Source of the DNA: a phage
DNA length: 64,000 nucleotides
Direction: 5' to 3' (one strand)
Assembly: GCA_019385495.1 (NCBI GenBank)
Contig: GCA_019385495.1_4102.1
The position numbers and the translations under genes were made by a program. A model generated the notes under the pieces. That model worked only from the letters and a program-made list of their open reading frames with translations. It searched no databases and was not told the DNA's origin. Shown here piece by piece: positions 4,937 through 40,723 of the stretch. Numbering within the stretch: position 1 is the stretch's first letter; the number at the start of each line of letters is the position of its first letter.

Positions 4937-6355
4937 ATGAGCATTTTAGCAATTCTTGAAAGCATTAAAAATACTAGCAGTACTCTGGGCAAAAAGGCTA
5001 TTCTTGAACAAAATAAAGATAATGTAACTTTGCAAAAAGTTCTGAAATATACACTCGATCCTAGTATTGTAAGTGGGTATAAAAAGCTACCAGACGCTGA
5101 TAACGTGTATCAACATATGACATTGGATGAAGCTATTGATAAACTAGAATGCATCTATAAGCGTGCATTGACGGGACATACAGGGCGTGATTTCATTGCT
5201 TCAGTACTAGGTAGTGTGAGTCCAGATGATGCTGAAGTTCTTCGTAAGATGCTTACAAAGAACTTAGATTGTGGTATTCAAGAAAAGAACTGCAATGATG
5301 TATTTGGTAAAGGATTTATTAAAGATGAACCATATATGCGTTGTTCTTTGCTTGATAAAAAGACTGTTAAGAACATCAACTTCAAAGGTCATGGTTATGC
5401 TGTCTCCGAGGTCAAGATGGATGGTCAGTACTTAAACCATGTAGTCATTAATGGTGCTCTTACCTCTTCCTCCCGTAATGGTAAACTATATGACTTCTTA
5501 GGTTGTCGTGATGGTGAGATGGCAGGTCTTGCACATCAAATTCAAATGAATGATGAACGTTTTAGTAGTGGTGTCGTCTTTATGGGTGAAGGTCTAGTAC
5601 TTGATAATGACGGTGAAACTATTCTTCCACGAACAACTGGTAATGGTATCATTCAGAAGGCTGGTAAAGATAGTATTAGTCAGAATGAAGCAATGCGTAC
5701 TGTATTTGTACTATGGGATGTTGTTCCGTATGATGCATTCTGTGAAGGTACATGGAATGTAAAACGTAAAGAACGTCGCGAACTTCTTGAATCTGCCATC
5801 AATGTATTGGGTAGTGATTTTGTACGTATGGTGAAATACCGTAAGGTTCAAAACATTAAAGAAGCATTTGAGTACAATAACGAACTCATGGATCAGGGTG
5901 AAGAAGGATCAGTACTGAAATGTGAAGATGGTATCTGGAAATCACATACATCTCCTAAGCAGTTGAAAGTAAAACTAAAAATGCAATTGGATTTGCGTAT
6001 TGTTGGTTTCAACGAAGGTGAAGGTAAGCGTAAAGGTTCACTTGGTTCTTTACAACTTGAAAGTGCATGTGGCACACTGAAGGTAAATGTAGGAACAGGT
6101 ATCCGTGAAAAAGATGCAGAGTGGACATTCAAAACCATTTGGGAACGAATGCAAGAACTAATTGGTAAAGTCGTTACCGTTGAGTGCAATGAGATTGTAA
6201 TCGACAAGCGTACAGGTGAACCATCACTATTTTTACCAGTGTTTATTGAATTTAGATTTGACAAAAACACTTGTGACGATTATACTCGTATCTTAGAAAT
6301 TCGTGATAGTGCTGTTGAGGTGTTCTCTAACAGTATTATTGAAGCACTTAGCTAA
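4937..6355 (+). CDS. ATP-dependent DNA ligase (T4 gp30-like)
   Basis: N-terminus KKAILEQNKDN matches T4 ligase KQAILEKNKDN as recalled; KxDG motif (SEVKMDGQ); EGLVLD; C-terminal LFLPVFIEFRFDK resembles ligase motif VI. Confidence 0.85.
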   Translation: MSILAILESIKNTSSTLGKKAILEQNKDNVTLQKVLKYTLDPSIVSGYKKLPDADNVYQHMTLDEAIDKLECIYKRALTGHTGRDFIASVLGSVSPDDAEVLRKMLTKNLDCGIQEKNCNDVFGKGFIKDEPYMRCSLLDKKTVKNINFKGHGYAVSEVKMDGQYLNHVVINGALTSSSRNGKLYDFLGCRDGEMAGLAHQIQMNDERFSSGVVFMGEGLVLDNDGETILPRTTGNGIIQKAGKDSISQNEAMRTVFVLWDVVPYDAFCEGTWNVKRKERRELLESAINVLGSDFVRMVKYRKVQNIKEAFEYNNELMDQGEEGSVLKCEDGIWKSHTSPKQLKVKLKMQLDLRIVGFNEGEGKRKGSLGSLQLESACGTLKVNVGTGIREKDAEWTFKTIWERMQELIGKVVTVECNEIVIDKRTGEPSLFLPVFIEFRFDKNTCDDYTRILEIRDSAVEVFSNSIIEALS

Positions 6356-6374
6356 TCATTTATTGGAGGTAATT

Positions 6375-7166
6375 ATGAAATTTGTTGTAACATCTGACGT
6401 ACACGGTGGAACTGATTACCTCCATCGCGGTGATTACAGTGATGTAGTACTGATCATTGCTGGGGACTTCGATGAAGTTAAACGCAGTCGTTACCGTACT
6501 GGTATCGAATCACTGTGTAAGCAGTTCAAAAATGTAGTACTGGTTCCAGGTAATCACGAATATTATGGTTCAAATATCATCAAAACGCATAAAGTACTAT
6601 CCAATATGCAGGATGAGATTCCTAATTTTATCTTTTTGCAAAACAAATTTGTATGGCTGGATGGAGTACTGCTTGTTGGTAGTACTCTGTGGACAGACTT
6701 CGATAAAGGTAATTCTTTGACGAAGTTTGATGCTCGTCAGAAGATGAACGATTACAAACATATCCGTCATGGAACAACATCAGAGCCTTGGCGTAAGAAA
6801 CTGACACCTGATGATACTGAGTTTATGCATCACAAAGATAAACAATTTATCAAAAATTCTATTGACACAGTTCGCTTTATGCATGATAATGATTTCAAGG
6901 TCATCGTGATTACTCATCACGCACCAAGTTATCAAAGTGTTTCACCAAAATATAAAAATGATTCACTAAATGGTTGTTACTGTTCCGATATGGATCAGTA
7001 CATTGAAGATTTGGGTGCTGATGTTTGGATTCATGGTCATGTTCATAGTAGCTTTGACTACCACATTGGTAAGACACGTATCATTTGTAATCCACGAGGC
7101 TATGAATCGTATAGTGGATCTTGTGAGAATTTTGATTACAATCCTAAATTTGTATTTGAAATTTAA
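6375..7166 (+). CDS. calcineurin-like metallophosphoesterase
   Basis: DVHGG, GDFD, GNHEYY, HHAP, GHVH motifs; RBS GGAGG at 6365; ORF-track start 6303 probably too early. Confidence 0.75.
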   Translation: MKFVVTSDVHGGTDYLHRGDYSDVVLIIAGDFDEVKRSRYRTGIESLCKQFKNVVLVPGNHEYYGSNIIKTHKVLSNMQDEIPNFIFLQNKFVWLDGVLLVGSTLWTDFDKGNSLTKFDARQKMNDYKHIRHGTTSEPWRKKLTPDDTEFMHHKDKQFIKNSIDTVRFMHDNDFKVIVITHHAPSYQSVSPKYKNDSLNGCYCSDMDQYIEDLGADVWIHGHVHSSFDYHIGKTRIICNPRGYESYSGSCENFDYNPKFVFEI

Positions 7167-7178
7167 TGTGAGGATACA

Positions 7179-7562
7179 GTGTCATTGATTTATTTTGAAC
7201 TACCAGAATATACCAATTATCCAAGCCGAGTTATTTGCTCAGTTTATAGTAATGCATATCATCACTTGTTAGTGAATAGTAATAAAGCTGTGCATTATTA
7301 TCGAAATAAAGAACCACGTACATTAAAGAATCGTTATGGTTTTGACCCAACTAACACTGAAGTTGAACTCTGTGATCTGTTTGGGGAAGTAATGGTGGTG
7401 TTGAAACGAGATATTCATCTTTTCCATACATACAAACTTAATCAGTACTTTATGGAAACACTGTCTATACGTTCCCATGCTCCGATGATTAAAGTTGATT
7501 TGAATTATGTTGATGATAAATTGAAATATGATTTCATAAATTCACTTGTTTATTTGGAGTAA
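7179..7562 (+). CDS. hypothetical protein
   Basis: ORF, GTG start. Confidence 0.4.
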   Translation: MSLIYFELPEYTNYPSRVICSVYSNAYHHLLVNSNKAVHYYRNKEPRTLKNRYGFDPTNTEVELCDLFGEVMVVLKRDIHLFHTYKLNQYFMETLSIRSHAPMIKVDLNYVDDKLKYDFINSLVYLE

Positions 7563-7563
7563 T

Positions 7564-7968
7564 ATGAATATACGTTCAGTACGAATATTTTCATTTGTTG
7601 ATATGAATGAAAAACACTCTTATGTGTTTGAAACTGTCAATAAGTTAAATCCTCATACGGCAAAAATGATTGAAACCATGAAGAACTTGAGTTTGCATAT
7701 AGAAGTTTACTATCTTCATGACGATTCTGTTTTTGTATATGATGATGGATGGTATGACGGTGTGTTTTATGATGACATTAGCACTACTGCTGATTACTAC
7801 TTTCTAGTGAGTAACCCACTATTCAGTACTAAAACTTTGTTTGACATTACCGATACAAGCGTGTATGATACAAGTCATGTTGAGTTACTTAAGTTTGATC
7901 CAGTATTATTCAACAAAGAAACGGCGTATTGGATGACTGATTTCTTTTCAAATATTCCAGTAAAATAG
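7564..7968 (+). CDS. hypothetical protein
   Basis: ATG after RBS GGAG; ORF-track 7546 start is non-ATG. Confidence 0.4.
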   Translation: MNIRSVRIFSFVDMNEKHSYVFETVNKLNPHTAKMIETMKNLSLHIEVYYLHDDSVFVYDDGWYDGVFYDDISTTADYYFLVSNPLFSTKTLFDITDTSVYDTSHVELLKFDPVLFNKETAYWMTDFFSNIPVK

Positions 7969-7970
7969 TT

Positions 7971-7998
7971 TGGACATTTTAAATCTTAGTGATATAAT
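7971..7998 (+). promoter_or_regulatory. promoter: TGGACAT box plus extended -10 TGATATAAT
   Basis: TGGACAT 7971-7977, TGaTATAAT 7990-7998, about 35 nt upstream of ATG 8033. Confidence 0.45.
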
Positions 7999-8032
7999 AC
8001 TCACAACAACGAAATAATAGAGGAAATTAACA

Positions 8033-8728
8033 ATGGTTGAACAATTCATGTTTGGTGGTTATGCTAATGGCGAAGTACGTAACATTTCTATTCCTTACGT
8101 AGTTGAGAAAGTTAATGGTTCAGAACGTACATATGATCTAGCATCTCGTATGATGCAAGACCGTATCATTTTCCTTGATACTGATTTCAATGATCAAATG
8201 GCACATATCATCAAACAACAATTGGTATGGTTAGACTCACAAGGTGATTCCCCTATTACATTCTACATTAGTTCACCGGGTGGTTCAGTACACGCAGGTT
8301 TGGGTATTGCAGATGTTGCTAAGTCTTGTATTTCTCCAATTCGCACTGTAGTAATGGGCTATGCAGCATCAATGGGTTGCTATACACAATCTGTAATTGG
8401 TACTAAAGGTTTCCGTTTAGGTGGTAAGCGTTCTTATTTCATGTGTCACCAAGTAAGTTCTGGTACACAAGGTCTAATTACTGACCAGAAGATTTCACTT
8501 AAACATTCTGATGCCCTAAACACTCTATTGACTAAAGAAATTGCAGAAGCAGTTGGTGTATCACACGAACAACTACTGAAAGATGCGGATCGTGACCTGT
8601 GGTTGAACGCTGAAGAAGCACTCGAATACGGTGAACATGGTTTCATTGATGGTATCATCCTCGGACCACGCAACGAAGAAGGTAAGTATCTCGTCAAACG
8701 TCGCGGTGGCGTTGAAGAGTGGGTCTAA
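8033..8728 (+). CDS. ClpP-like serine protease
   Basis: ISSPGGSVHAGLGI and MGYAASMG motifs typical of ClpP; RBS AGAGGAAA. Confidence 0.8.
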   Translation: MVEQFMFGGYANGEVRNISIPYVVEKVNGSERTYDLASRMMQDRIIFLDTDFNDQMAHIIKQQLVWLDSQGDSPITFYISSPGGSVHAGLGIADVAKSCISPIRTVVMGYAASMGCYTQSVIGTKGFRLGGKRSYFMCHQVSSGTQGLITDQKISLKHSDALNTLLTKEIAEAVGVSHEQLLKDADRDLWLNAEEALEYGEHGFIDGIILGPRNEEGKYLVKRRGGVEEWV

Positions 8729-8779
8729 TTTGAATTTCATTTGATGCCTCATTTGGGGCATCTTATTTCTGGAGATTTT

Positions 8780-9070
8780 ATGAAAGTTCTTGTACGTAAT
8801 AATACTGAAGTCAATGATGTGTTAGATGATTCAGAGTTTATTAATACCGCATTAGATCAGATTAGTGCAGTGGCTATTGAATTGAAAGGTGTTGACGAGG
8901 CAGAACGAGTACTCAATGGTTTTTCTATTGTTCTCGAATTAATGCAAGAAGTTCTTATTAAAAAGAACATTAATCCAATTAACGCAGTTCAACACGCAGA
9001 AGCTATGCGTCAAGAACATGGCACATTCTCAGATAAAAAATTCATCAGTACTGACGAGGGGAAAGAATAA
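8780..9070 (+). CDS. hypothetical acidic protein
   Basis: ATG after GGAG; ORF-track start 8741. Confidence 0.4.
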   Translation: MKVLVRNNTEVNDVLDDSEFINTALDQISAVAIELKGVDEAERVLNGFSIVLELMQEVLIKKNINPINAVQHAEAMRQEHGTFSDKKFISTDEGKE

Positions 9071-9071
9071 T

Positions 9072-9518
9072 ATGTCTAATGCACAATACAAAGAAGGTTC
9101 TGCCGCGTTTAAAAACAAAGTAGTTTTTAACAATGAACAGCTAAAATCACAGCACCCATTATTCCGTCAAGGATATCGTGCTGCACAAGCTGAAGCTATG
9201 AAGAAAAATAACGTAACCTTCCCAACAACTCTGTATGATATTCCCAAACGTCCTTCAGTGTTTAAAGCAGAATGGACTGACATTATGGCAGCAACTAAAC
9301 GTCCTCGTTTTGCTAAACTTCACACTGATGAAGGTCGCTGGATGTTGATGGGTATTATGAAAGCAGTTGAGAATCAGGCACATACTATTGTTCGTTACAA
9401 AGACGTTGTAGCTATGGTTGATAAAGCATTTGATCTTATTCTCCAGTACGGTTATGATGAAGGTGTACTAACTGTTTCCGATTGTGAGCAGTACCAGTAC
9501 ACTCCATTCCAGAAATAA
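9072..9518 (+). CDS. hypothetical protein
   Basis: ATG 9072 after RBS; ORF-track start 9018. Confidence 0.45.
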   Translation: MSNAQYKEGSAAFKNKVVFNNEQLKSQHPLFRQGYRAAQAEAMKKNNVTFPTTLYDIPKRPSVFKAEWTDIMAATKRPRFAKLHTDEGRWMLMGIMKAVENQAHTIVRYKDVVAMVDKAFDLILQYGYDEGVLTVSDCEQYQYTPFQK

Positions 9519-9525
9519 TTACTTA

Positions 9526-9552
9526 GGGAATCTTTCATGATTCCCATTTTAT
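9526..9552 (+). terminator. intrinsic terminator
   Basis: GGGAATC-tttcat-GATTCCC followed by ATTTTATTT. Confidence 0.6.
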
Positions 9553-9631
9553 TTGCTGCATATCAAAAATTATTGATCAAAAATTGATCCATACAAGGTA
9601 AATACCCAAGGTGTAATTGTTAATAGGGTAG

Positions 9632-10186
9632 GTGGATATGCAGCAATATAATTTAACTGAAGAACAAAGTGATATTTTTTATCATCATATGTTTTTAATT
9701 GATGAGTTTGCTTTGAAAATTAATTCTGAAGCAATTGATATATTGAAGAAATGGTATTCATATTATAATAAAAACAAAAAGTGGTATTGGTTTAATAGAA
9801 ATTTAAAGTCATTTTTAAAAACAATAACACAAGTTGATAGTGTAGAAATGATACATAGTTCAATTGGATATAGTTATTTGACTAAACACAATAATACTAT
9901 GATGTTATCCGGTTTTAAAGTTGAAAGAATTTCAAAGCTTACAGGTTTATCATTAAAAACAATTTTATATGATATAGAAAAGATTTGGAAAACTATAGAA
10001 TTCATGCACAAAAATATGTCATTCATATATAGAAATTATGATATATTCACTGAGGTACGTCAATATCATAATAAACCTTATGTATTGAATGAAAAGTACT
10101 ATAATCATATGGAAGTTTGTTCTAAACTCGTTGATGATTGGAATCTAGAGGGACATAATGAAATACACACACCTAAGTATAGATGA
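9632..10186 (+). CDS. hypothetical protein (very AT-rich, N/K/Y/I-rich)
   Basis: ORF; composition differs from neighbours. Confidence 0.4.
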   Translation: MDMQQYNLTEEQSDIFYHHMFLIDEFALKINSEAIDILKKWYSYYNKNKKWYWFNRNLKSFLKTITQVDSVEMIHSSIGYSYLTKHNNTMMLSGFKVERISKLTGLSLKTILYDIEKIWKTIEFMHKNMSFIYRNYDIFTEVRQYHNKPYVLNEKYYNHMEVCSKLVDDWNLEGHNEIHTPKYR

Positions 10187-10682
10187 TACTAATATCTGGT
10201 TAGATAACATAATCAAGACATTAGAATTAATTAAACTTACATTACAAAAAACTACTGATATTGAAATTAATATTAAACAAGAAATATTAAACTATTATCA
10301 TAGAAACAAATATAGCACGTTTATCTCTAAATTAATTTATGGATTATATGATATTGAAGATATTTGCATCGGTTACAGTACTGGTATTTGCTTCACTGTT
10401 AATGGTTTAAAAAATGATTTAAATTTCAGACTTTCCGATGAAGAGCAAGATTTTCGTAGATTTTGTGATAATATTATGGATACAGACAAAATTACATTTG
10501 TGATTGAATTAAATCAAACATGGTCTACATATGCAGATAAACCATTTGAAATTAATGAAACAGATGTGTTAAACTATATTCGAGTTATGAAAATTCATGA
10601 TTTGTGTAAAAACGCATTGTTAAGTATTGGAGCTTATAATGAAACATACGACTTGGTTGAAGATAGCAGAAGTAGTTGCTGA
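10158..10682 (+). CDS. hypothetical protein (very AT-rich)
   Basis: ORF. Confidence 0.4.
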   Translation: MKYTHLSIDDTNIWLDNIIKTLELIKLTLQKTTDIEINIKQEILNYYHRNKYSTFISKLIYGLYDIEDICIGYSTGICFTVNGLKNDLNFRLSDEEQDFRRFCDNIMDTDKITFVIELNQTWSTYADKPFEINETDVLNYIRVMKIHDLCKNALLSIGAYNETYDLVEDSRSSC

Positions 10683-11118
10683 GGAAAGTAAATGTATTTC
10701 ACAAAAAGTTGGTTGTGTTATTGTTAAAAATAATAGAGTATTGAGTACTGGATACAATGGAACGCCATCTAAGCAGCCAAACTGTTGTGATGTAAATCAA
10801 CATTTAGTGAACGATGGTCGTTTTCAAGACTGGGTTGATGATGCAGCAAAACATGAACATCATGAGTGGAGTAATATTCATGAGATCCATGCAGAGATGA
10901 ACGCTTTACTGTATAGTTCTCCGACTGAACGCCAAGGAGCAACTCTTTACACAACTCTACAACCATGCTATACTTGTTCTAAGTTAATCGCAGGTAGTGG
11001 GATTACCCGTGTAATTTATCACAAAAGTTATCCACGAACACCACCTGAAGCGATTAAAGTACTGGAAGATGCTGGGATTATTGTTAACTGCATTTATGAC
11101 AAGGGTATGAATCAATGA
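10639..11118 (+). CDS. cd: dCMP deaminase
   Basis: Zinc-binding HAEMNAL and PCYTCSKLI motifs of the CDA/dCMP deaminase family; RBS GGAG. Confidence 0.85.
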   Translation: MKHTTWLKIAEVVAEESKCISQKVGCVIVKNNRVLSTGYNGTPSKQPNCCDVNQHLVNDGRFQDWVDDAAKHEHHEWSNIHEIHAEMNALLYSSPTERQGATLYTTLQPCYTCSKLIAGSGITRVIYHKSYPRTPPEAIKVLEDAGIIVNCIYDKGMNQ

Positions 11119-11369
11119 CATTTATGATTGTTGGATTTCTATCAATATTAGTATTATTTTTTATAACAGTAATGTTTGTTATTGATGATAATGACATTTC
11201 TCAACGAAACTATGAAGTGCGTTTTTCTGCACAAAATAATAAGTACTATATTGTAAACTGTATACACCGTAGTGAGAAAAGGGTAACAAGTAGATTTGGA
11301 TTTACCATTTATTATAAAGACCGAGTAGAAGCTGACATGATTTGTCAGAAGCTTAATACTGTAGAATAA
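11115..11369 (+). CDS. small membrane protein
   Basis: N-terminal hydrophobic helix, ATGA overlap. Confidence 0.4.
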   Translation: MTFMIVGFLSILVLFFITVMFVIDDNDISQRNYEVRFSAQNNKYYIVNCIHRSEKRVTSRFGFTIYYKDRVEADMICQKLNTVE

Positions 11370-11374
11370 AAAAA

Positions 11375-11396
11375 GGAGCCACAAGGCTCCTTTTTT
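11375..11396. terminator. bidirectional intrinsic terminator between convergent genes
   Basis: GGAGCC-acaa-GGCTCC with A-run 5' and T-run 3'. Confidence 0.65.
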
Positions 11397-11397
11397 G

Positions 11398-11775
11398 TTA
11401 ACCAGGGATGTTACAATAATACAAATCCCAAGGGTGATATTTCATTTCTCCAGTACTCAATTTAATTTTATGAAACTGGAATGATTCGGCAAATGCACTA
11501 TCATCAATCTTAATACAAAAAGTATTTTTTGCTAAAGTTGGTGCAATCTCTAGTGCAGTTTTAGATGCATCTAATCTGATTTTATCTTTATCAAAACTTG
11601 TTATAGTTACAAAACGATAAACATTAAAATCAGTGTCGATAAGATCGTAAACACAACTAGAACGTTGATTAAAGATGTTCAAGTTATATTTCAATTCACC
11701 GTTTATATTAGCGGCGGTTACACAAAAGCCGCCGATATTGAATGGTAATTTACCTTGTGCTGCTATAGCTTTCAT
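11398..11775 (-). CDS. hypothetical protein (125 aa), only convincing minus-strand gene
   Basis: ORF with RBS AGAGGAAA upstream on minus strand. Confidence 0.5.
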   Translation of the reverse strand: MKAIAAQGKLPFNIGGFCVTAANINGELKYNLNIFNQRSSCVYDLIDTDFNVYRFVTITSFDKDKIRLDASKTALEIAPTLAKNTFCIKIDDSAFAESFQFHKIKLSTGEMKYHPWDLYYCNIPG

Positions 11776-12084
11776 ATTTTATTTCCTCTTATTAATAAAC
11801 AACTACTTTTACAGATTGTTGTACCTTTTATATTTACACCGTCAACTAAATATCCACCTAAAGTGAATGGAAATTGGTCTTGTCCTGCGATTGGTTTTCC
11901 CATTAAGGGCACTCCTTATAAAAAAGCTTTACATTTGGTATGTGTTTGTGATAGAATCTTCACAGTGATTGTACTAAGGGGATTATCAGATGAGGGAAAT
12001 TTGAGTTAAGTACAGAAAAAGTTTGACTTAAGTGTTTAAGTACTATATTATTTATATCTTCCTAACCAAAATTAAGGATTTGTT

Positions 12085-12693
12085 ATGAAAAGACTATGGC
12101 TTGAGGTAGTACAAGCAGTAATGCTTCTGATGTTGATAAATTTTCCAGCCAGTGCTGGTATTGAAAGTAAAAATGTGATAAAGTACAATCCTGAAACACG
12201 TAATGTATATTTCATCTCAGATATTACGGATGGGTCACTAAAGCGTATGATGGAGTTGTATGATAAAGAACACTATGATACCATTACCATCACATCGCCA
12301 GGTGGTGATTTTGATGCTGGGATTAAAATGGCAAACTTCGTTAGAGACAATGGTATAAATTTAATTGTTTCTAGGTATTGCAACTCAGCATGTACTGTGG
12401 TATTCTTCAGTGTAGCTTTTGAAAAGCGATACATGATAAATCGCTCAGTACTGGGTCTTCATAACATTTCGATTAAAAGTAATGTTACTGATGGTGATAA
12501 TTCATTTGTGTCTGTAAGACAGCTATCAACTTTTACCGAAGAAATGGCAACAAAGGTAGGTTTCCTTTTTTCACTATATGCAGCAAATGGAATCCCACCA
12601 GAAGTTCTATTTAGAGTTAGTCGTTCTCGTGGTGAAGATGTTGTAATATTAACAAAACCAGAACTGGTTTTTTACGGTTCAGTCAAACAATAA
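12085..12693 (+). CDS. secreted ClpP/crotonase-fold-like protein
   Basis: Signal-peptide-like N-terminus; ITSPGGDFDAG motif resembling ClpP/SppA. Confidence 0.4.
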   Translation: MKRLWLEVVQAVMLLMLINFPASAGIESKNVIKYNPETRNVYFISDITDGSLKRMMELYDKEHYDTITITSPGGDFDAGIKMANFVRDNGINLIVSRYCNSACTVVFFSVAFEKRYMINRSVLGLHNISIKSNVTDGDNSFVSVRQLSTFTEEMATKVGFLFSLYAANGIPPEVLFRVSRSRGEDVVILTKPELVFYGSVKQ

Positions 12694-12763
12694 AAATAAT
12701 TAAAATAACAGGATGATTATGATGTACTTCCTTTGTTATTAATTATATTGAGATTATATAACT

Positions 12764-13024
12764 ATGACAAACATCCAAAACTTGACATCTATTATTTTTT
12801 ATGCTACTGTAGTAATGTATGCTACAGTTATTTTTCTAACAGTTTTCATTTACAAAGATTATCGTAATGGCTTTATTGATCCAACTACAATGAAGTTCAA
12901 TTCAAAATTCGAAGCAATAATTTATTATGTACTATCAACTTCATACTTGGTGTGCCTAATGTTGTTAGGAGCACTAATTTATATCTTATACACAACATTA
13001 TTTGCAATTGGAGCTATTTTATGA
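12764..13024 (+). CDS. small membrane protein
   Basis: Two hydrophobic helices. Confidence 0.4.
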   Translation: MTNIQNLTSIIFYATVVMYATVIFLTVFIYKDYRNGFIDPTTMKFNSKFEAIIYYVLSTSYLVCLMLLGALIYILYTTLFAIGAIL

Positions 13025-13614
13025 CCTGTATTATTGCACACACTGACGGAGTAAGTTCTTTTATTGCTGGGGATAAGTTAGGAAGCAATGGATTTACAAA
13101 AACTGTTCAAACTGAGCCAAAGGTATTCGAGAAAGAATTTATCAAGTTACATGATGATGGACTAACTAGAACTAAAGAAGTAATGGCATTGGGTTATACT
13201 ACATCATTTCGTATGGGTCAGTTGTTAAATTATAACCTTAATTTACCTGAACAAGATGCTAGTCAAACATTTTCACAATATTTGGTTCTTAAAGTTATTC
13301 CAATCATTCGTCAAATGTTTAAAGAAGAATGGGGTGCACGAGATGCATCACAAGATGTAGGTGGTGGACAATTTATCATTCTCCACAATCATACAATCTA
13401 TGAAGTTCAAGAAGACTTTTCAGTACTACAACCTAAAACAAGAATTACCGCAGTAGGTAGTGGGACATATCATGCAATTGCAGCAATGCAAGCATATATT
13501 GAAGTTGAGAACGAATCTAAAAAACCACTACACGAACGTATCAAATCAATTTTTAAAATTGTTAGTGATAATGTAACAAGCGTAAGCGAAGAGTTTGATG
13601 TTTTAAAATATTAA
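13021..13614 (+). CDS. HslV/proteasome-beta-like Ntn hydrolase
   Basis: MT-CIIAHTDG..IAGDKLGSNG N-terminus (Thr right after Met) and AVGSGTYHAIAAM near C-terminus, resembling HslV; ATGA overlap. Confidence 0.5.
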   Translation: MTCIIAHTDGVSSFIAGDKLGSNGFTKTVQTEPKVFEKEFIKLHDDGLTRTKEVMALGYTTSFRMGQLLNYNLNLPEQDASQTFSQYLVLKVIPIIRQMFKEEWGARDASQDVGGGQFIILHNHTIYEVQEDFSVLQPKTRITAVGSGTYHAIAAMQAYIEVENESKKPLHERIKSIFKIVSDNVTSVSEEFDVLKY

Positions 13615-13641: not shown

Positions 13642-13836
13642 ATGATGGCATACACAATTTATGAATGGGTTTTGAGTTTTTTTATAGTTTTTTCTATTGT
13701 TGTAATTTATAACAATGCTAAATGCTTATATAGAGACTTGAAATCCAATGGTTATCACAAAGATAATAATTTTATGTATGCCTATCATATTGGAATCATT
13801 CTGTTATTATCAATATATTTAATTGTTTTTTTATAA
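13642..13836 (+). CDS. small membrane protein
   Basis: 64 aa hydrophobic. Confidence 0.35.
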   Translation: MMAYTIYEWVLSFFIVFSIVVIYNNAKCLYRDLKSNGYHKDNNFMYAYHIGIILLLSIYLIVFL

Positions 13837-40043: not shown

Positions 40044-40418
40044 ATGAGTATGTTAGAAATAATTGTTTCAAAAATTCTTATTCCATTTTGGAAACCAATT
40101 TCTTTTGTATTATTAATTGGCGGTTCAGCTTATGCTGGTTGGGAAGCTAATACTTATTACAGTGGATATCAACAAAGCATAGAGCAACAAATAGCTAAAA
40201 AAGTTGATACCGCCTTGGATAAAATGCAACAAGAAAATGCAAAAAATTACCTTGAAACTAAAAAAATCATGGAAGATAATGCTAAAGTTATTGAAACAAA
40301 AGTTCCTTTTATTGTAGAACGTGAAGTTTATAAGAATGTATGTTTAGATGAAGATGGTGTAAAAGTACTGAATGAACTAAAACAAAATTCTCAAGCTGCG
40401 AGGAATAAATTCAAATGA
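40044..40418 (+). CDS. putative i-spanin (Rz-like)
   Basis: N-terminal TM helix then coiled-coil-like region; followed by overlapping lipoprotein gene. Confidence 0.5.
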   Translation: MSMLEIIVSKILIPFWKPISFVLLIGGSAYAGWEANTYYSGYQQSIEQQIAKKVDTALDKMQQENAKNYLETKKIMEDNAKVIETKVPFIVEREVYKNVCLDEDGVKVLNELKQNSQAARNKFK

Positions 40419-40723
40419 AAAAATTATTAGTTCCGTTTATTTCTTTTTTAATTATAAGTGGATGTGCAGAACAAGTAAAACTACAATCCCCTGCACCAAT
40501 TAAACAAGAAATTCTGTTAGAAAGATGTGATGATGATACACCTCTACCACAAAAAATTATGATTGACAAAAATGGTTTTAAAGGTTATGATGGTGCAGAA
40601 ATTCTTAAAGTACTTACTCGTTGGGATGCAGTATACAACGAATGTGCTTTAAAACATGATGCATTAATTAAAACTATTCGTGATTTACAAGGTAAAGATA
40701 TTAAAATCAATATCAAGGAATAA
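40415..40723 (+). CDS. putative o-spanin lipoprotein (Rz1-like)
   Basis: Signal peptide with lipobox ISGC; ATGA overlap with upstream gene. Confidence 0.5.
   Translation: MKKLLVPFISFLIISGCAEQVKLQSPAPIKQEILLERCDDDTPLPQKIMIDKNGFKGYDGAEILKVLTRWDAVYNECALKHDALIKTIRDLQGKDIKINIKE

Follow-up and report, generated by a model that had tools for sequence, protein, structure and literature searches.

Three separately placed host-type protease homologs in a RaK2-like jumbo coliphage: a ClpP, a predicted exported ClpP-fold protein and an HslV-like protein

Results

Three protease genes on one strand of an Asteriusvirus genome

The stretch of phage DNA studied here (GenBank assembly GCA_019385495.1, contig GCA_019385495.1_4102.1; 64,000 nucleotides (nt), the whole of which we call the window) carries three genes for homologs of bacterial proteases, all on one strand and within 5.6 kb. 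These are clpP (8033-8728, plus strand), a gene for a predicted exported protein of ClpP fold (12085-12693, plus strand), and a gene for a homolog of the N-terminal-threonine proteases HslV and BPH (13021-13614, plus strand). The 6.5 kb around them share 93.4% nt identity with Escherichia phage 121Q and with about 20 other Asteriusvirus genomes, with weaker matches extending to RaK2-like jumbo phages of Klebsiella, Erwinia, Serratia and Salmonella. By sequence similarity, the window is that of a RaK2-like jumbo coliphage (Asteriusvirus; RaK2/121Q group).

The depositors of the 121Q genome named the three counterparts gp464 'protease (ClpP-like)', gp473 'protease (ClpP-like)' and gp475 'protease (ClpYQ-like)'. 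The genes are thus real and were noticed previously; the protease names date from 2014. RefSeq renamed gp464 'head maturation protease', and the same label stands on its orthologs in RaK2 and several relatives. In the RefSeq records of fEgEco12 and WPEC5, the label is also found on the exported ClpP-like gene.

The gene at 8033-8728 encodes a full-length ClpP

The clpP gene starts at an ATG with a Shine-Dalgarno-like GAGG 9 nt upstream and encodes 231 amino acids (aa). Its product contains both an SSPGGS and an AASMG motif and matches the Pfam family CLP_protease (PF00574) with an E value of 3.3e-41 and 141.6 bits (cut-off 20.2), over profile positions 2-179 of 182. Searched against solved structures, the sequence matched dozens of ClpP entries, the best with E 4.9e-36. 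The protein is 36% identical to E. coli ClpP, and Ser113 (codon 8369-8371, plus strand), His139 (8447-8449) and Asp188 (8594-8596) align with the E. coli residues Ser97, His122 and Asp171. This triad is invariant in an alignment of the phage relatives. In addition, the N-terminal axial-loop sequence, IPYVVEKVNGSERTYDLASRMM, is closely similar to its E. coli counterpart. The initial annotation had described a canonical ClpP-like protease on the strength of the SPGG and AASMG motifs, and the Pfam match and the aligned triad uphold that description; both ClpP-fold reading frames lie at precisely the coordinates it gave.

The phage protein therefore shares with bacterial ClpP (MEROPS S14; ClpAP and ClpXP of E. 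coli) homology over its full length, the Ser-His-Asp triad, the SPGG oxyanion motif and the axial-loop sequence. It differs in being phage-encoded, in scoring below the equivalog level, in having a longer N-terminus (an extension of about 19 aa) and a phage-only C-terminal tail of 22 residues, both conserved within the phage clade, and in several docking-pocket residues. The NCBIfam models of cellular ClpP score 152-155 bits. From these sequence comparisons, it is a member of a divergent phage clade of S14/PF00574 and no ortholog of the host gene, and we predict a genuine, full-length and catalytically competent ClpP protease with an intact triad.

Between the window and 121Q, 51 clpP codons differ, 50 of them synonymously and one nonsynonymously (92.4% nt and 99.6% aa identity). 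As almost all of these differences are synonymous, the gene is under strong purifying selection. Across positions 4937-13614, the similarity to 121Q forms a mosaic, in which the ligase gene (100%) and the dCMP deaminase gene (99.8% nt) stand beside clpP at its lower nt identity, a pattern that suggests recombination between Asteriusvirus lineages.

The ClpP gene lies outside the head module

The annotation of 121Q was read over almost the whole genome. Its head module (330.7-336.8 kb) comprises a T4 gp20-like portal, gp601, a gp22-like scaffold and a gp23-like capsid protein. Here, gp601 belongs to Pfam Peptidase_S77, the family of the T4 gp21 prohead core protease (E 9.9e-21), and gp603 matches the Gp23 family (E 1.3e-89). 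The ClpP of 121Q is encoded at 214.4 kb, about 120 kb away from this module. Consistent with this separation, tblastn found no capsid, portal, scaffold or S77 protease homologs anywhere in the 64-kb window.

Instead, clpP sits in a block with the order ligase, phosphoesterase, ClpP, dCMP deaminase, Sir2, Nudix and PhoH. This block recurs in RaK2 itself and in three RaK2-like genomes at increasing distance, metagenomic contigs with a ClpP of only 54-76% identity. Proteomic data from a relative point the same way. Virion mass spectrometry of phAPEC6 listed 62 proteins, including the capsid protein gp225c, the scaffold gp226c and the 'prohead core scaffold and protease' gp227c (PMC7247149, Table 1). 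The counterparts of the three proteases, gp353c (ClpP), gp346c and gp345c, are absent from this list, that of the exported protein among them (PMC7247149). We conclude that the ClpP is not the capsid-maturation enzyme, and that a separate T4 gp21-type S77 protease matures the head.

A second gene encodes a protein of predicted ClpP fold

The gene at 12085-12693 (202 aa, ATG start, Shine-Dalgarno-like AAGGA upstream) had been singled out for the motif ITSPGGDFDAG, which indeed occupies residues 69-79 of its product. The protein matches PHROG 26024 'protease' with E 2.6e-119. It misses the cut-off of Pfam CLP_protease (E 0.0074; 16.6 against 20.2 bits), and its sequence retrieved only chance fluorescent-protein matches among solved structures (E >= 0.035).

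Structural modeling was more informative. An AlphaFold model built with ten homologs reached a predicted local distance difference test (pLDDT) score of 71 and was confident over residues 30-125. Foldseek matched this model to ClpP structures of many species (E 1.6e-6 to 3e-5, probability 1.0, template modeling (TM) score about 0.6, 173-190 columns), with SppA also among the matches. A profile-profile comparison with ClpP in hhalign (E 8.8e-6) aligned ITSPGG with ISSPGG, YCNSAC with YAASMG and GLHN with MCHQ, so that Ser101 coincides with the nucleophile of ClpP and His126 with its base. On the basis of the model and the profile alignment, we assign the protein to the ClpP fold. The initial annotation had staked its reading of this gene on a protease fold, and one is found here by Foldseek and hhalign, with Ser101 and His126 conserved.

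The putative active site comprises SPGG at residues 71-74, the motif Cys99-x-Ser101-x-Cys103 (Ser codon 12385-12387) and His126 (12460-12462). Across an alignment of 19 sequences reaching down to 25% identity, S71, G73, G74, C99, S101, C103, H126, N127, Y165, G169 and P171 do not vary. No lysine is conserved among these 19 sequences; K157 is invariant only in close relatives. Since no acidic residue is invariant near the position of ClpP Asp171 and no lysine is conserved, the chemistry looks like that of a ClpP-type Ser/His pair rather than the Ser-Lys dyad of SppA and NfeD. A Ser-Lys mechanism of the SppA kind was considered and ruled out, there being no conserved lysine and no match to Pfam Peptidase_S49.

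The resemblance to SppA/SohB (S49) and NfeD (clan SK) lies in a ClpP-fold domain that is predicted to face the periplasm and to need no ATPase, and relatives of the 12085 protein give weak NfeD1b_N matches. In contrast to SppA and NfeD, which use a Ser-Lys dyad, the phage protein has His126 at the ClpP base position and no conserved lysine. It further differs from the S49 and NfeD proteins in lacking any supra-threshold Pfam match, in its Cys-x-Ser-x-Cys nucleophile motif and in consisting of a single domain of 200 residues.

The second ClpP-fold protein carries a predicted signal peptide

Residues 1-24 of the 12085 protein (12085-12156, plus strand) form a predicted Sec signal peptide with cleavage after A-S-A. 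The call is heuristic and uses the n-region, hydropathy and the residues at -3/-1. The N-terminus, MKRLWLEVVQAVMLLMLINFPASA followed by GIESK, has a basic n-region (MKR), a hydrophobic core (10-residue Kyte-Doolittle mean 2.64) and A-S-A at residues 22-24 before Gly25, at which the mature protein would begin. The same heuristic was passed by 3 of the 95 open reading frames (ORFs) of the window that start with ATG and encode at least 80 aa, one of the three being a spurious antisense ORF. FPASA is conserved in close homologs, and homologs down to 25% identity have basic and hydrophobic N-termini with small residues at -3/-1 (SNA, SAA, SSA, SMA). The signal-peptide-like N-terminus reported earlier is thus supported by the heuristic and by the retention of this property in homologs.

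The only other genuine ORF of the window to pass was a 102-aa ORF at 40415-40723. It starts MKKLLVPFISFLIISGC, a lipoprotein-type signal with a lipobox, and may encode a spanin or another envelope protein.

The predicted exported protein belongs to a large family without a name

A profile search with the 12085 protein against 1.84 billion representative proteins retrieved 1,867 cluster representatives at E <= 0.001. Among the best 153 family members, C-x-S-x-C is present in 152 and [ST]xGG in all 153; 137 have a strongly hydrophobic N-terminus and 23 a lipobox-like motif. The family signature can be written as SPGG ... C-x-S-[SA]-C ... G-[WFL]-H-[GN]. Sampled bacterial relatives fell into no family when scanned with Pfam and NCBIfam, giving only sub-threshold Clp or NfeD hints, and all source names read 'hypothetical protein'.

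About 15 representatives match the 12085 protein over its full length. Gene context was checked for three of them; all three come from RaK2-like phage contigs in which the gene order is the same, and the exported gene lies divergently beside a Big_2/Ig-like gene in those contigs, in the window and in RaK2. The bacterial members, mostly of 230-290 aa, match over the N-terminal two thirds only, whereas the phage clade (190-225 aa) has a C-terminal half of its own.

The genomic context of five bacterial relatives is mixed. One member overlaps, in each of two independent contigs, the last part of a gene for a Peptidase_C39 ABC exporter, and another lies downstream of an HlyD/AprE-type membrane-fusion gene and a Fic gene. 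Two of the five thus stand beside peptide-export components and three are uninformative, which is too few for an association; judged from these gene neighborhoods, the family may be linked to peptide or bacteriocin export.

We also compared how the two ClpP-fold proteins vary among phages. The exported protein and the ClpP, respectively, are 66% and 96% identical to their counterparts in UE-S1, 54% and 96% in JNE01, 52% and 96.5% in TH47, and 37% and 71% in RaK2. By these identities, the exported protein diverges far faster than the ClpP of the same genomes.

The third gene encodes an HslV/BPH-fold protein

The product of ORF 13021-13614 (197 aa) starts MTCII and matches PHROG 1040 with E 4e-24. 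It misses the NCBIfam equivalog cut-off for HslV (19.9 against 137 bits; E about 5e-4 over 50 residues), and a sequence search against solved structures was uninformative (HslV at E about 1). In an alignment of 27 sequences, M1, T2, D18, K34 and G146-x-G148 are invariant, corresponding to Thr1, Asp17, Lys33 and GSG after removal of the methionine. The AlphaFold model has a pLDDT of 91, and Foldseek matched it to HslV (E 1.8e-10), BPH (TM 0.71), Anbu and the 20S proteasome beta subunits. From the model, we are confident in predicting a homolog of the HslV/BPH-fold threonine proteases.

With HslV (ClpQ), BPH and Anbu, the protein shares the fold, at high model confidence, and the Thr1/Asp17/Lys33/GSG residues. 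Its sequence similarity to HslV is only marginal, and in the Asteriusvirus copies about 17 extra residues are inserted behind Lys33. The 121Q annotation, read over all but 200-204.8 kb, names no HslU-like gene. Two small, very hydrophobic ORFs, 12764-13024 (86 aa) and 13642-13836 (64 aa), flank the HslV-like gene, each with two or three predicted membrane helices as judged by eye. The stop codon of the first and the start codon of the HslV-like gene overlap (ATGA), an arrangement that suggests translational coupling.

The closest relative encodes ClpA-like and ClpS-like proteins

Elsewhere in its genome, 121Q encodes potential partners for the ClpP. Its gp581 (762 aa) matches the ClpA model TIGR02639 in a single full-length stretch (E 9.5e-227), while ClpB models match it in two separate parts, as would be expected of a protein without the ClpB middle domain. 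The D2 region of gp581 is nearest to E. coli ClpA structures (E 5.6e-73), and 'krsIGMsgsd' aligns with 'rksIGLihqd'. The IGL loop is the part of ClpA that docks on ClpP.

A second protein, gp48, matches Pfam ClpS marginally (24.7 bits; cut-off 23). In a hand alignment with E. coli ClpS, the equivalents of Asp35 and Thr38 appear to be kept and those of Asp36 and His66 to be changed. Read from this alignment, gp48 may keep only part of the N-degron pocket, and classical N-degrons are perhaps unread. As in the ClpAP system, then, the 121Q lineage encodes a ClpA-type partner with an IG[LM] loop together with a ClpS-like protein. ClpA is conserved in most RaK2-like phages (Attai et al., PMC6102473).

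Promoter-like and terminator-like elements

The clpP gene is preceded by a sigma-70-type promoter-like site at 7971-7998 (plus strand; TGGACA, a spacer of 16 nt and TATAAT with a TG extended -10; consensus score 11/12). This site lies 35 nt upstream of the start codon and is identical in 121Q and phAPEC6, and an element of the form TTGACT ... TGTTACAAT occupies the equivalent place in a 76%-identical relative. Just 3' of the stop codon lies a terminator-like hairpin (8743-8762, plus strand), with an 8-bp stem containing five GC pairs followed by the T-rich TTATTTCT. As a hint from the sequence only, these elements suggest that clpP is transcribed early and monocistronically.

The exported gene is likewise preceded by a sigma-70-type promoter-like site (12023-12051, plus strand; TTGACT, 17 nt, TATTAT), in a divergent intergenic region shared with a minus-strand virion gene. 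The site is identical in 121Q and phAPEC6; the upstream regions of distant relatives did not align, so that its conservation is shown among close relatives only. A T4-type late promoter was considered for either ClpP-fold gene and rejected, as no plus-strand TATAAATA lies nearby. A copy of this late-promoter core is found on the minus strand at 12049-12056, upstream of the Ig-like virion gene, where it overlaps the plus-strand -10 of the exported gene. In the window as a whole, TATAAATA is depleted (3 copies against 12.5 expected), and the few remaining copies may be functional.

Genes between and around the proteases

Seven unrelated genes separate the ClpP gene from the exported gene, among them that for dCMP deaminase and the Ig-like virion gene (11398-11775, minus strand; 125 aa). 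The phAPEC6 counterpart of the latter, gp347, was detected in the virion with 75% sequence coverage (PMC7247149). RaK2 and the metagenomic relatives have no HslV-like gene at this locus; NadR-like and NAMPT genes are found in its place, and the other two proteases stay. In these distant RaK2-like phages, the slot of the small membrane protein and the HslV-like gene is thus occupied by NAD-salvage genes (NadR-like cytidylyltransferase/Nudix, NAMPT). Two of the distant contigs also carry an Acb1-family gene just upstream of Sir2.

Discussion

The explanation that we favor, with a probability of roughly 0.7, is that the window carries three separately placed, non-virion proteases of host type: a ClpP that works with a phage ClpA, an exported periplasmic serine peptidase, and a protease of the HslV/BPH type. 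In this model, the phage ClpP would be the proteolytic chamber of a phage-encoded AAA+ protease and would be made early, from its sigma-70-type promoter. The ClpA-like unfoldase would dock on it through the IGM loop, the equivalent of the IGL loop of E. coli ClpA, and the ClpS-like protein would possibly act as an adaptor of the pair; both partners would be encoded elsewhere in the genome. Such a ClpA/ClpP machine would work in the cytoplasm, degrading selected proteins of the host or of the phage. The 12085 protein, in turn, would be made with a cleavable Sec signal peptide and delivered to the periplasm, where it would act through Ser101 and His126 without ATP. Cys99 and Cys103, which flank the nucleophile, would probably form a disulfide there. 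Its most likely role is that of an exported, ATP-independent serine peptidase, probably directed at proteins or peptides of the envelope or periplasm. ORF 13021-13614 would supply a threonine protease of the HslV/BPH type, for which no cognate ATPase was identified in the 121Q annotation.

Several observations weigh against this explanation. With 152 bits, the ClpP does not reach the equivalog-level cut-off of the cellular ClpP model (NCBIfam TIGR00493; 308.6 bits). For the ClpA-like and ClpS-like proteins, the genes are those of 121Q and not of the window, and their presence in this phage is expected from the 93% nt relatedness; an NCBIfam scan of gp48 gave no match. Of the residues that we take to form the docking pocket of E. 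coli ClpP, the alignment keeps Y62, M92, I90 (as V) and L189 (as I), and Y60T, F82S, F112L and L114G are changed, a pattern that would fit either a co-adapted phage partner or an altered use of partners. Promoter-like sites are not enriched in the region (56 against 53.8 expected from shuffled sequence). For the exported protein, no third triad residue is invariant, the position next to ClpP Asp171 being D, E, N, S, T or K across the family, and the AlphaFold model is only moderately confident, with residues 129-148 below a pLDDT of 50. Close homologs conserve Glu7 and Gln10 inside the h-region of the predicted signal peptide, and the RaK2 ortholog has a less canonical cleavage site with no clean AXA.

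These last points are also those that favor an alternative for the 12085 protein, namely that its N-terminus is an uncleaved membrane anchor, or that it is a non-catalytic ClpP-fold protein with a binding or scaffolding role. An invariant Glu7 and Gln10 would be unusual in a disposable signal peptide, and neither the 19 sequences nor hhalign provides an invariant acidic third residue of a triad; the overall pLDDT of 71 is moderate. However, Ser101, His126 and SPGG are invariant down to 25% identity, the Cys-x-Ser-x-Cys motif is all but universal among the best family members, and most homologs have canonical small residues at -3/-1 or lipoboxes. Because the conserved residues are exactly the ClpP catalytic positions, catalysis is favored, and an anchored form would likewise put the domain in the periplasm. 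We therefore consider this alternative unlikely, though still a serious contender. Similar odds apply to the possibility that the phage ClpP uses host ClpX or ClpA, or mixes into host ClpP rings, and so redirects or blocks host proteolysis. The N-terminal axial loop, very near that of E. coli ClpP, would suit such a role, and in 121Q the clpP and clpA-like genes lie about 85 kb apart and are not co-transcribed. A host-directed function has also been proposed for the ClpP and ClpS of jumbo phages, which are patchily distributed and were suggested to act on the host ClpAP system or against host proteins (Iyer et al. 2021, PMC7824862). Against it, a full-length phage ClpA with an intact IG[LM] loop would have no obvious use without a ClpP partner. 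Half of the docking-pocket residues considered, moreover, differ from E. coli ClpP, which would fit co-adaptation to a divergent partner.

Two further readings concern what the genes are for and whether they belong together, and both fare worse. If the three genes formed one co-regulated protease module with a shared function, their common strand and close spacing, an arrangement kept throughout Asteriusvirus, would be accounted for. Yet the two ClpP-fold genes have seven unrelated genes between them, clpP is flanked by a promoter-like and a terminator-like site of its own, RaK2 and the distant syntenic loci carry other genes in place of the HslV-like one, and the predicted compartments differ, cytoplasm for the ClpP and periplasm for the exported protein. 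Because of these intervening genes, the separate clpP sites, the differing predicted compartments and the dispensability of the HslV-like gene for the locus, we treat the three as independent host-type protease genes co-located in a non-structural region rather than as a functional module, and regard such a module as very unlikely. The cluster of host-type protease homologs proposed in the initial annotation hence stands as co-location, the HslV-like gene being real and within the 5.6 kb, and fails as a functional cluster, given the intervening genes, the own promoter-like sites of two of the genes and the absence of the HslV-like gene from the locus in more distant relatives.

Less probable again is that ORF 8033-8728 encodes the head-maturation (prohead) protease, as the RefSeq label on 121Q gp464 and several relatives has it. 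PHROG_94 'head maturation protease' matches the ORF with E 3.9e-44, and ClpP-fold prohead proteases do exist in other phages; the NCBIfam models NF045542 and NF045540, the latter for protease-capsid fusions, match weakly, reflecting a common fold and remote sequence similarity. The PHROG_94 match, however, which underlies the RefSeq label, spans only positions 56-262 of a mixed profile of 622 positions. Compared by hidden Markov models, the phage protein sides with ClpP, as the models of cellular ClpP score three times higher than the head-maturation model NF045542 (51.2 bits, far below its cut-off of 120). Unlike the members of the NF045542 family, the phage ClpP is encoded outside the head module, 120 kb from it and inside a nucleotide-metabolism block conserved across the group. 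A dedicated S77 gp21-like protease is encoded between the portal gene and those for scaffold and capsid, and it is this S77 protein, and not the ClpP, that was detected in virions (PMC7247149). A sigma-70-type promoter-like site precedes clpP, with no TATAAATA upstream. This reading is already largely refuted, and we consider it extremely unlikely. The earlier suspicion that this gene, not being next to capsid genes, might encode no prohead protease is supported by synteny in 121Q and its relatives, by the S77 gene elsewhere and by the virion data.

The label 'head maturation protease' on the ClpP orthologs (121Q NC_025447 gp464; RaK2 NC_019526; others) seems to have been transferred in error from the mixed family PHROG_94. 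For annotation, this means that the RefSeq/PHROG name is wrong for the ClpP of 121Q, RaK2 and many relatives, whose heads are matured by the T4 gp21-type S77 enzyme. The ClpP itself was essentially already known from annotation, and PHROG 1040, to which the HslV-like protein belongs, is likewise a known phage family, so that only the exported ClpP-fold protein is counted here as new, and modestly so. Searches of the literature on phage-encoded ClpP and Asteriusvirus proteases found no experimental work on the three genes, and PADLOC defense models gave zero matches to the three proteases.

Taken together, RaK2-like jumbo phages appear to hold a near-complete private proteolysis toolkit, comprising ClpP, a ClpA-like unfoldase, a ClpS-like protein, an HslV/BPH-like protein and an exported ClpP-fold enzyme. 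Little of this will surprise the specialist, the genes having borne protease names since 2014 and a host-directed ClpP in jumbo phages having been proposed earlier. The exported enzyme is the least understood part of this set. As a wider and tentative proposal, which we consider less likely than not, it may represent an unnamed, widespread family of ATP-independent periplasmic or surface Ser/His peptidases of ClpP fold with a disulfide-capable Cys-x-Ser-x-Cys motif. One member would have been captured by RaK2-like phages and deployed early in infection, either in remodeling the host envelope or in destroying proteins or peptides of the periplasm (receptors, toxins of competitors or defense factors, for instance), its rapid divergence relative to the ClpP being that of an arms race, while the ClpP would form the core of a complete phage ClpA/ClpS/ClpP machine. 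In any case, a large family of secreted ClpP-fold proteins, so far without a name and with a Cys-x-Ser-x-Cys active-site motif, comes into view through the exported enzyme, and the phage copy, as a single gene to be expressed in E. coli, offers a simple system for finding the activity and substrates of that family.

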